The notes under the pieces: model-generated
What the model saw: only the letters and a program-made list of their open reading frames with translations
Database searches by the model: none
What the model was told of the DNA's origin: nothing
Program-made: the position numbers and the translations under genes
Part shown: in pieces, positions 40,950-44,168 of the stretch
How positions within the stretch are numbered: the first letter of the stretch is position 1
How the letters are laid out: every line of letters begins with the position of its first letter
From: Escherichia coli
GTDB lineage: Bacteria > Pseudomonadota > Gammaproteobacteria > Enterobacterales > Enterobacteriaceae
Length of the DNA stretch: 64,000 nucleotides
Assembly (NCBI RefSeq): GCF_003334255.1
Contig: NZ_QOWU01000004.1
Reading direction: 5' to 3' (one strand)

Positions 40950-42059
40950 TCACTTGGCTGCCGTGGATGAACCGTCGGCGTGCCACTGGAAGACACCAAA
41001 ATCAAATCCCTTAAGATCGCCTTTTTCATCCCAGTTCAGCGGCCCAATCACGGTGTTTGCACCGTTAGCTTTTAAATCTTTCACCAGCGCCAGCGGCTCA
41101 TCGCTGCCGGTACGCTCAAGGGCTGTTGCCAGAGATTGCACCGCCGCGTAAGTGATCCAGACATAAGGCCCGGACGGATCTTTCTTGTCTGCTTTCAGCG
41201 CATCAACGATGCCCTGGTTTGCCGGATCCTGGTCATAGCGTTTTGGCATGGTGACCAACATGCCTTCGGCAGCATCGCCAGCAATATTCGACAGCGACGC
41301 ATTACCCACACCTTCCGGCCCCATAAACTGGGTTTTCAGGCCAACGGAACGGGCCTGGCGCAGCATCTGCCCCATTTCCGGGTAGTAACCGCCGTAGTAA
41401 ACGAAGTCGATGTTTTCTTTTTTCAGGCGGGCGATCAGCGCGGAGAAATCTTTCTCGCCAGCGGTAATGCCGTCGAAGAAAACAACATTGGCGTTAGCAG
41501 CTTTCAGCCCGTCCTGCACCGAACGTGCCAGCCCTTCGCCATATTGTTGTTTGTCGTGAATGATGGCGATGCGCTGGGGCTTCACCGTCTCAAGAATGTA
41601 TTTTGCCGCCGTTGGCCCCTGGGAAGAGTCCAGCCCGGCAGTACGCATAATGTGTTGATAACCGCGTTGGGTCAGCTCCGGGTTGGTCGCTCCCGGCGAG
41701 ATCATCAGAATACCTTCGTCTTCATAGATATCTGACGCAGGCTGGGTAGAAGAAGAACACAGATGACCAATAACGTATTTAATGCCGTCATTAACGATTT
41801 TGTTGGCGACCGCAACGGCTTGTTTCGGGTCGCAGGCGTCGTCATATTCCACGCCAACCAGCTTGTCGCCCTTAATTCCCCCTTTGGCATTAATGTCTTT
41901 AATCGCCTGACGCGCGCCGTTAAATTCCATATCGCCCCACTGGGCAATCGGGCCGGACATCGCGCCGACAACGGCGACTTTAATATCGTCAGCCATAGCG
42001 GTGTGTGAAATTGCCAGTGCAATCATCCCTGCGATGATAGTTTTCGCATTCCGTTTCAT
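40950..42059 (-). CDS. livK: leucine-specific periplasmic binding protein
   Basis: ORF track 40950..42113; start trimmed to [16 protein letters not shown] (369 aa, signal peptide). Confidence 0.93.
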
Positions 42060-42482
42060 AGTCAAAAATCCCCATTCGTGATGTTGTGTTGCTTTGTTTT
42101 TATGTGTTAACAAATCAGACTGTTCTTTTTTTATACTGCACTGTTTTTGCCTGTCTGATTAAGGGTTTAGCGCAGTATTTTGTGATAATAGTGATTAAAA
42201 TCCCTATTTTTCAGTCGATTAAGAACAGATAATATTCTGAATTTATTGATAGATAAACAGAAAAAAGTGCCTTTGTCAGCATAAAATAACGGCACAAAGG
42301 GCGGAATAATTCACTACCATTCAGGGGATTATGCTGGGTATTTTTCATTCTCTAATGTTTTAACTTTGTAATTATTGCTGTTAAAAAATTAATCACCTGC
42401 CAAAAGAAATAAAAAAGAGAAAGCCTCCGATTAAATTATTTCGCTACACTGGTTCCACTTTTGTGATTTACACGGGTTACCC

Positions 42483-42866
42483 ATGAAGCTGACCATCATT
42501 CGATTAGAAAACTTTAGCGACCAGGACCGGATTGACCTGCAAAAGATCTGGCCGGAGTATTCCCCTTCCTCTTTACAGGTTGACGATAACCACCGTATCT
42601 ACGCCGCGCGTTTTAACGAGCGCCTGCTCGCTGCCGTACGGGTAACCTTAAGCGGCACCGAGGGAGCACTGGATTCCCTGCGTGTGCGGGAAGTCACCCG
42701 ACGTCGCGGTGTGGGGCAATATCTGCTGGAAGAGGTTTTGCGTAACAATCCTGGCGTTTCATGCTGGTGGATGGCGGATGCAGGCTTGGAAGATCGCGGT
42801 GTGATGACGGCGTTTATGCAGGCGCTGGGGTTTACGGCGCAACAGGGCGGCTGGGAGAAGCGTTAA
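42483..42866 (+). CDS. panZ: PanD maturation/regulatory factor (GNAT-like)
   Basis: 127-aa ORF recognised as YhhK/PanZ. Confidence 0.85.
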   Translation: MKLTIIRLENFSDQDRIDLQKIWPEYSPSSLQVDDNHRIYAARFNERLLAAVRVTLSGTEGALDSLRVREVTRRRGVGQYLLEEVLRNNPGVSCWWMADAGLEDRGVMTAFMQALGFTAQQGGWEKR

Positions 42867-42906
42867 TCGTCAAGTTGATTTCAAAAGTGATGACCAACGA
42901 GAAATT

Positions 42907-43008
42907 GCCTGATGCGCTACGCTTATCAGGCCTACAATGTGTGTTGCAATTTACTGATTTCTTTGGATCTTGTAGGCCGGATAAGGCGTTTACGCCGCAT
43001 CCGGCATG
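42907..43008. repeat. REP/BIME element between panZ and livJ
   Basis: TGCCTGATGCGCTACGCTTATCAGGCCTACA and inverted TGTAGGCCGGATAAGGCGTTTACGCCGCATCCGGCATG. Confidence 0.8.
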
Positions 43009-43064
43009 AAGCAACGTACTCGATATTAGCAATTTGGCGGCAACCCAAAGTTGCCGATTAATGA

Positions 43065-44168
43065 TTACTTCGCATCGGTCGCCGTGCCGTTGGCGTGCCA
43101 GTCAAATACGCCGAACTCAAAGCCTTTCAGATCGCCTTTCTCATCCCACGTCAGCGGTCCCATTACGGTATCCACGGAGTTCGCTTTCAGGTATTTGGCG
43201 ATCTCAGCCGGATCGTCAGACTGATTCAGGCCCGCCTGCAAAGATTGCAGCGCGGCGTAGGTGGTCCAAACGAATGCGCCGCTTGGGTCCTGTTTTTTCG
43301 CTTTGATCGCGTCAACAATGGGTTTGTTTGCCGGAACCTGATCGTAGTTCTTCGGCTTGGTCACCAGCAGCCCTTCCGCTGATTCGCCCGCAATGTTAGA
43401 CAGCGAAACGTTAGCCACACCTTCCGGCCCCATAAACTGAGTTTTCAGCCCTGCCGCGCGTGCCTGACGCAGGATTTGCCCCATTTCCGGGTGGTAACCG
43501 CCGTAGTAAACGAAGTCGATATTCTCTTTCTTCAGACGCGCCACCAGCGTAGAGAAATCTTTTTCCCCGGCGGTGATACCATCAAAGAACACCACGTTAG
43601 CATTGCCTTTCTTCAGGCCGTCCTGCACCGCTCGTGCCAGACCTTCGCCGTATTGCTGTTTGTCGTGAACGATAGCAATACGCTGCGGTTTCACTTTCTC
43701 AAGAATATATTTCGCCGCCGTCGGCCCCTGGTCGGAGTCCAGGCCGGTGGTGCGCAGGATCAGCTGATAGCCACGGGCGGTCAGCTCCGGCGCGGTTGCC
43801 GCTGGGGTGATCATTAAAATGCCTTCGTCTTCGTAGATATCAGACGCAGGCTGCGTTGATGAAGAACAGAGGTGACCAATCACATATTTAATGCCGTCGT
43901 TAACGACTTTGTTCGCCACCGCAACCGCCTGTTTCGGGTCACAGGCATCGTCATATTTTACGATTTGCAGTTTGTTGCCTTTAATGCCGCCTTTAGCGTT
44001 GATATCCGCAACCGCCTGCTCTGCGCCGGTAAACTCCTGGTCACCGTACTGCGCAACCGGACCGGACATTGCGCCCACGACCGCGACTTTAATATCTTCT
44101 GCCAGAGCCATATTGCTGAATGCCAGCGCGATACATCCTGCCAGTAACGCTTTACCCTTTATATTCAT
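43065..44168 (-). CDS. livJ: Leu/Ile/Val-binding periplasmic protein
   Basis: ORF track 43065..44225; start trimmed to [16 protein letters not shown] (367 aa); paralogue of livK. Confidence 0.93.

Follow-up and report, generated by a model that had tools for sequence, protein, structure and literature searches.

The livK-panZ-livJ locus of Escherichia coli: two diverged paralogous binding-protein genes with separate promoter regions and common regulators

The DNA studied here is a segment of a stretch of 64,000 nucleotides from Escherichia coli (contig NZ_QOWU01000004.1 of assembly GCF_003334255.1; the whole stretch is called the window below), in which livK and livJ, two genes for periplasmic binding proteins, lie in the same orientation on either side of panZ. 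The segment is almost certainly the E. coli livK-panZ-livJ locus, with paralogous binding proteins, separate promoter regions and common regulators. The three open reading frames (ORFs) on which this identification is based were counted from the annotated ATGs, and livK, panM/panZ and livJ have exactly the same coordinates in both the RefSeq and the K-12 annotation; the annotated neighbours are livH and livM downstream of livK, and rpoH and ftsX upstream of livJ. Several RefSeq E. coli chromosomes match positions 40500-45000 with 100% identity; these positions find a match in all the 5,426 complete E. coli genomes and are covered to at least 80% in one place in 5,413 of them. The system is well known: the structures of both proteins have been solved and their regulation has been published. 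Its identification is correct but ordinary. The features of the locus are collected in Table 1.

Table 1. Genes, sites and repeats of the livK-panZ-livJ locus (positions in the window)
Feature	Position	Strand	Description
livK	40950..42059	-	leucine-specific periplasmic binding protein (LS-BP), 369 amino acids (aa); first gene of livKHMGF
panZ (= panM, yhhK)	42483..42866	+	PanD maturation factor, GNAT-fold CoA sensor, 127 aa; unrelated to the liv genes
livJ	43065..44168	-	Leu/Ile/Val-binding protein (LIV-BP), 367 aa; monocistronic
GC-rich hairpin, 47-bp livK-livH spacer	40921..40941	-	CCGCCCG-loop-CGGGCGG, then UUUAG
livK ribosome-binding box GAAUGGGGAUU	42067..42077	-	identical to the livJ box; sole significant match between the upstream regions
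CA-rich element CAACACAACAUCAC, livK 5' untranslated region (UTR)	42078..42091	-	-32 to -19; perfect complement of GcvB nt 67-80 (region R1)
Lrp-consensus-like site cluster	42108..42446		livK-panZ divergent intergenic region
BIME (bacterial interspersed mosaic element)	42906..43006		Z2-type REP (repetitive extragenic palindrome) + 36-nt linker + Y-type REP
Z2-type REP TGCCTGATGCGCTACGCTTATCAGGCCTAC	42906-42935	+	0 mismatches to query pattern
Y-type REP TGCCGGATGCGGCGTAAACGCCTTATCCGGCCTAC	42972-43006	-	0 mismatches to query pattern (pattern with one N)
Hairpin CGGCAACUUUGGGUUGCCG after livJ stop codon	43038..43056	-	weak candidate for the livJ transcript end
livJ ribosome-binding box GAAUGGGGAUU	44175..44185	-	identical to the livK box
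CA-rich element AUCACAACACCACAACACACG, livJ 5' UTR	44198..44218	-	-50 to -30; GcvB R1 target-like
Near-palindromic Lrp-consensus-like site CAGCATACTCTGCTA	44262..44276		upstream of livJ; 2 mismatches on both strands
rpoH intrinsic terminator	44393..44422	-	13-bp stem and T-run immediately past the rpoH stop codon; limit of the livJ upstream region

Both binding proteins belong to the NCBIfam family NF011933, with scores of 700 bits for LivK (residues 1-369) and 697 bits for LivJ (residues 2-367) against a cutoff of 477. Residues 24-369 of LivK match the structures PDB 1USG/2LBP (E = 4.6e-232) and LivJ matches PDB 1Z15/2LIV, which their depositors named LIV-BP. In the alignments, the mature chains that were crystallised (1USG, 346 aa; 1Z15, 344 aa) extend from precursor residue 24 to the end, and both LivK and LivJ thus have a cleavable N-terminal signal peptide with a mature chain that starts at about residue 24. 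PanZ was identified through the NCBIfam equivalog NF033213 (189 bits, cutoff 68) and through PDB 4CRY_B (E = 1.2e-81, residues 1-126), 2K5T matching as well (E ~1e-81). Both binding-protein genes are linked to the cognate permease genes: livH begins 47 bp past livK on the same strand and is followed by livM, and livJ lies 2.1 kb upstream. LivJ and LivK are described as alternative periplasmic subunits of a common LivHMGF translocator; LivJ binds Ile, Val, Leu, Ala and Thr, LivK is leucine-specific, and both also transport Phe and Tyr at lower affinity (PMC12708883). Each would hand its ligand to the one LivHMGF translocator of the ATP-binding cassette (ABC) type, and the two high-affinity uptake systems LS and LIV-I would result, with livK presumably co-transcribed with livHMGF and livJ forming a separate single-gene unit. 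For transport function and regulation we rely on the literature and on the solved structures.

LivK and LivJ are identical at 284 of 369 positions in BLASTP (77%; one 2-aa gap, E = 0), with a longest identical peptide run of about 32 aa, and their genes share 818 of the 1104 aligned bases (74.1%). The pairwise alignment therefore bears out the preliminary description of this DNA, which had spoken of long identical protein stretches and homologous DNA in two diverged paralogues of near-equal length flanking panZ; the motif that it quoted, CACACCTTCCGGCCCCATAAACTG[G/A]GTTTTCAG, stands at 41309-41341 and at 43418-43450, inside a 25-nt exact run. Identity at the first, second and third codon positions is 0.84, 0.89 and 0.50. 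By the Nei-Gojobori method, the proportion of synonymous differences (pS) is 0.65 and the number of synonymous substitutions per site (dS) about 1.49, which is near saturation, for a nonsynonymous value (dN) of 0.15 and a dN/dS of 0.10. Codons 1-23, which encode the signal peptides, are the most diverged (proportion of nonsynonymous differences, pN, 0.35 versus 0.12 in the mature part). The duplication had been called old, and it is: dS is near saturation, and across the genera of Enterobacteriaceae the orthologues of LivJ and those of LivK fall into two distinct clades, both with a bootstrap of 100%.

Recent gene conversion between livK and livJ could in principle have kept or refreshed this similarity, so that the pair would be older than it appears or partly homogenised. 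With 27 and 25 nt, the longest runs of exact DNA identity are somewhat longer than a mean identity of 74% predicts, and codons 221-280 show the lowest synonymous difference (pS 0.44-0.51). However, pS in windows of 40 codons ranges from 0.44 to 0.79 and approaches 0 in none of them, the two long runs coincide with invariant peptide motifs, and the monophyly of both clades across genera is a pattern that conversion within lineages would break. Since no window has a low pS, there is no sign of a recent conversion tract, and we rejected this explanation as very improbable. Even less credible, indeed barely worth entertaining, is the idea that either livK or livJ is a redundant copy in decay and not a functional, specialised paralogue: both ORFs are intact, dN/dS between them is low, LivJ and LivK are each kept at 86-99% identity across genera, and ligand-bound structures of both and distinct specificities are on record (PMC12708883). 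No point of the analysis spoke for such decay, which was discarded on the grounds of purifying selection and published biochemistry.

Each gene had also been described as preceded by its own long AT-rich leader. The richness in A+T is confirmed, with 67% in the divergent livK-panZ intergenic region (42060-42482, 423 bp) and 58.5% in the region upstream of livJ (44169-44438, 270 bp, including the rpoH terminator), for a window mean of 47%. These are, however, whole intergenic regions, and "leader" is too strong a word because one of them is shared with the divergent panZ, the other contains the rpoH terminator and only about 50 nt are homologous. This homology, seen both in the alignment and with blastn-short, is confined to the last ~50 nt before each ATG, which hold the identical box GAATGGGGATT and a CA-rich run; beyond them, neither MAFFT nor blastn-short found any similarity between the livK and livJ upstream regions. 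The 5' regions of both genes fold no better than shuffled sequences (z = -1.1 and +0.1), which gives no support to an attenuator-type structured leader, and no Rfam family matches either leader at the gathering threshold in the 64-kb window. The sole Rfam match at this threshold in the 64 kb is the ryhB small RNA (sRNA) gene (26199-26263, minus strand, 83 bits, E = 3.6e-14).

Two hairpins lie downstream of the binding-protein genes, and a simple terminator scan called neither of them. The one in the livK-livH spacer reaches -21 kcal/mol (z = -2.9 versus shuffles; fold of 40896-40955, minus strand); it may act within the operon as an attenuating or stabilising stem-loop, and could determine how much binding protein is made relative to the membrane components. 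The one that follows livJ (-13.5 kcal/mol, z = -1.1) folds like shuffles and has no T-run.

Both upstream regions were scanned for Lrp-type sites with the Lrp consensus YAGHAWATTWTDCTR (at most 3 mismatches, 300 shuffles), and matches above chance were found in both. Upstream of livK there are 8 matches, for 2.0 +/- 1.6 in the shuffles, none of the 300 shuffles reaches 8, and nowhere in the window do matches lie more densely than in this cluster. In the livJ upstream region, two or more hits with 2 mismatches, such as the near-palindromic site, occur in 0.7% of shuffles. Lrp plus leucine is reported to repress livK (PMC2374795), and chromatin immunoprecipitation (ChIP) has revealed a high and persistent occupancy by Lrp at the livK and livJ transcription start sites (PMC10127797). 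Lrp with leucine would act on both genes at the DNA level.

For the sRNA GcvB, the K-12 gcvB sequence was used in the pairing analysis. The livK element forms with it a Watson-Crick block of 14 nt, where shuffles reach 12 at most, and the duplex with region R1 (-34.6 kcal/mol) is equalled by none of 300 shuffles. The livK and livJ mRNAs are both listed as targets of R1, that of livK being verified (PMC9299463), and GcvB would pair in each mRNA with the CA-rich element just upstream of the ribosome-binding site. Two results count against this picture of regulation. The livJ duplex with R1 (-29.4 kcal/mol) is marginal, as 3.3% of composition-preserving shuffles do as well, and promoter- and terminator-like matches are as frequent as expected from shuffles, only the rpoH terminator being convincing. 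The two genes have separate promoter regions and the same regulators, Lrp and GcvB, and their regulation is parallel, not independent (PMC10127797, PMC9299463); of the independent regulation claimed earlier, the separate promoters hold and the independence does not.

The BIME reported between livK and livJ is a canonical pair of Z2 and Y REPs in the panZ-livJ spacer, placed tail to tail between the convergent stop codons of the two genes; inverted arms were detected, and shuffled sequence gave no match to the REP patterns. For the Y/Z2 nomenclature of REPs and the IHF motif of BIME-1 we follow what we take to be the usage of the REP/BIME literature, and the minus strand of the linker carries AATCAGTAAATTG, by eye one mismatch from the presumed IHF consensus. 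The 113-nt BIME element has a median of at least 40 places per genome over all the 5,426 E. coli genomes. The build of Z2, linker and Y recurs at 8857-8956 and 37062-37162 of the window, with a linker that is conserved among the three copies, and a solitary REP-like match is found at 35431-35460.

The match across panZ, BIME and livJ is contiguous in 3,748 of the 5,426 E. coli genomes (~69%). In E. albertii (stretch L029+L030) the panZ-livJ spacer is 952 bp long and contains ORFs of 88 and 175 aa; its sequence is present a single time in each of 1,625 E. coli genomes (~30%), O157:H7 strains included, where it is annotated as the type II toxin-antitoxin module AtaR-AtaT (ataR-ataT) and abuts the panM stop codon. 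The spacer (42867-43064 in the window) is thus structurally polymorphic in E. coli, with BIME, ataRT and shorter K-12 alleles, and the BIME would be a later, strain-variable addition.

Gene order and copy number were compared in a species-level genome collection, which was scanned with an 11-aa peptide in fully degenerate back-translation; at least 120 stretches were obtained, contiguous ones were merged, and tblastn was applied. We call single-copy those genomes with one copy among the listed genes that keep the exact 11-aa motif. The two-copy set, of 15 Enterobacteriaceae genomes and an unclassified metagenome-assembled genome (MAG), includes three Citrobacter, E. albertii, four Enterobacter, Klebsiella, Mangrovibacter, Pluralibacter, Kluyvera, Superficieibacter and Pseudescherichia, and carries a LivJ-like copy (86-99% identical to LivJ, 74-80% to LivK), a LivK-like copy (86-98% to LivK) or both. 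Wherever enough of the locus was retrieved in this set, the order is rpoH-livJ-panZ-livK-livH-livM. Among the matches listed, eight genomes are single-copy (two Pectobacterium, Brenneria, two Pantoea, two Photorhabdus and Yersinia), and their gene adjoins livH and is 71-76% identical to both LivJ and LivK. In five of these eight genomes panZ (45-58% identity) is visible beside the single gene, and in all four genomes that show both flanks the distance from panZ to rpoH is only 109-159 bp, which leaves no room for livJ. That panZ was inserted between the two copies, as the preliminary description implied, is contradicted by this arrangement: panZ already adjoins the single gene in single-copy genomes, and livJ would have landed on its far side. 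In Aeromonas and Pseudomonas, the matches listed show a single copy next to livH, with panZ absent from the locus.

The spacer between livK and panZ measures 396-487 bp in two-copy genomes, mostly 421-424 bp; of the six single-copy genomes with panZ visible, four have a spacer of 407-422 bp. This similarity makes livK the positional orthologue of the ancestral gene. Over the window and seven homologous loci, the divergent panZ spacer is 407-422 bp in Photorhabdus, Acerihabitans and Pectobacterium and 421-424 bp in most of the Enterobacteriaceae sampled, and such conservation of length suggests a constraint on a common regulatory region.

Other variations were seen around these genes. Enterobacter and Klebsiella species have an extra 421-aa ORF between rpoH and livJ (Enterobacter cloacae, L045 2184-3449), which by eye resembles a class-III aminotransferase; rpoH-livJ gaps are similar (~1.6-1.75 kb) in L061+L062 and L068+L069, and measure ~270-320 bp in E. 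coli and Citrobacter. Klebsiella sp. BIGb0407 has 2.2 kb between livJ and panZ. An Alphaproteobacteria MAG (L027 5055-7206) carries two tandem binding-protein genes of the same family, both ~40% identical to LivJ/LivK; in this unrelated lineage the pair is a hint that binding-protein genes may have been duplicated independently more than once.

A neighbour-joining tree (358 columns, Kimura distances, 200 bootstraps) recovers the LivJ clade and the LivK clade at 100% each. The grouping of LivJ with LivK to the exclusion of the single-copy genera has a bootstrap of 78%; LivK joins these genera in 18% of the replicates and LivJ in 2%. The stem of the K clade (0.085) is longer than that of the J clade (0.050), the distance between J and K is 0.28, and single-copy genes lie at 0.30-0.31 from either.

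From this tree and from the gene orders, we infer a duplication on the Enterobacteriaceae stem, with panZ already in place and livJ as the relocated copy, a modest and only partly secured reading. The ancestral enteric order would have been rpoH, panZ, one binding-protein gene and livHMGF. The binding-protein gene would then have been copied with ~50 nt of its 5' UTR, and the copy, livJ, would have landed between panZ and rpoH, whose 3' ends converge, so that the part of the copied leader that survives is the sRNA target and the ribosome-binding site. LivK would have kept the ancestral position and the regulatory spacer of ~423 bp, evolved faster and narrowed its specificity. Taken as a whole, the scenario that we favour on balance is that of an Enterobacteriaceae-specific duplication later than the arrival of panZ, in which livK changed faster and became leucine-specific and livJ, relocated with its ~50-nt 5' UTR and the GcvB site, kept the broad specificity, the panZ-livJ junction having since been an insertion hotspot (BIME in ~69% and ataRT in ~30% of genomes).

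The duplication might instead be much older than the Enterobacteriaceae, the single-copy families having lost one copy and panZ perhaps having been inserted between tandem copies. The J-K distance, nearly as large as that to the single-copy genes, and the modest support of the J+K node point in this direction. We nevertheless hold it to be unlikely, as the single-copy genes cluster in a clade of their own, equally distant from J and K, panZ stands close to rpoH with no pseudogene remnant in all four single-copy genomes with both flanks, Aeromonas and Pseudomonas have one copy beside livH without panZ (among the matches listed), and a single gain is more parsimonious than four families each losing a copy cleanly and independently.

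The duplication on the Enterobacteriaceae stem has its own difficulties, and three points weigh against it. The J+K node, at 78%, has a short stem (0.018), and the alternative of K with the single-copy genera retains 18%; this alternative would still put the duplication near the base of the Enterobacteriaceae. The single-copy genomes, being defined by the exact motif, may have a second paralogue elsewhere. Finally, the three intergenic regions contain no relic of a lost panZ copy or of a binding-protein pseudogene (tblastn noise, best E = 0.05, unrelated), and the lack of a second panZ remnant leaves two routes, a tandem duplication of panZ with the binding-protein gene followed by loss, or a direct insertion of the single gene. 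In the open-access literature we found nothing relevant on the date of the livJ/livK duplication.

The pair is a classic case of a duplicated substrate-binding protein on one ABC translocator, and matters little beyond correct annotation. The structures and the control by Lrp and by GcvB are already published, and only the evolutionary content is mildly new: it adds a little in giving the duplication scenario a date and a polarity, and is possibly a teaching case of subfunctionalisation in which the relocated copy would keep the ancestral function.

Compared with K-12, the locus is the same in gene order and gene lengths, and the differences are at the level of strains: 22 of 1110 positions differ in livK, 12 of 1104 in livJ and 9 of 384 in panZ, and the panZ-livJ spacer has 198 bp here versus 187 bp in K-12, owing to an indel of ~11 nt beside the Z2 REP. 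The BIME shows no notable difference from the BIME-1 type (Y REP, linker, Z2 REP), with the same tail-to-tail REPs, a linker of ~36 nt and a high copy number. The last comparison is with the single braC-type gene that precedes braDEFG/livHMGF in Pseudomonas, Aeromonas and the enteric families other than Enterobacteriaceae, the BraC protein of P. aeruginosa having a broad Leu/Ile/Val specificity. These genes are of the same family and occupy the same place directly upstream of livH, with identities of 55-64% in Pseudomonas/Aeromonas and 71-76% in Pectobacterium, Pantoea, Yersinia and Photorhabdus; they are present in one copy at the locus, whereas E. coli and its family have two.

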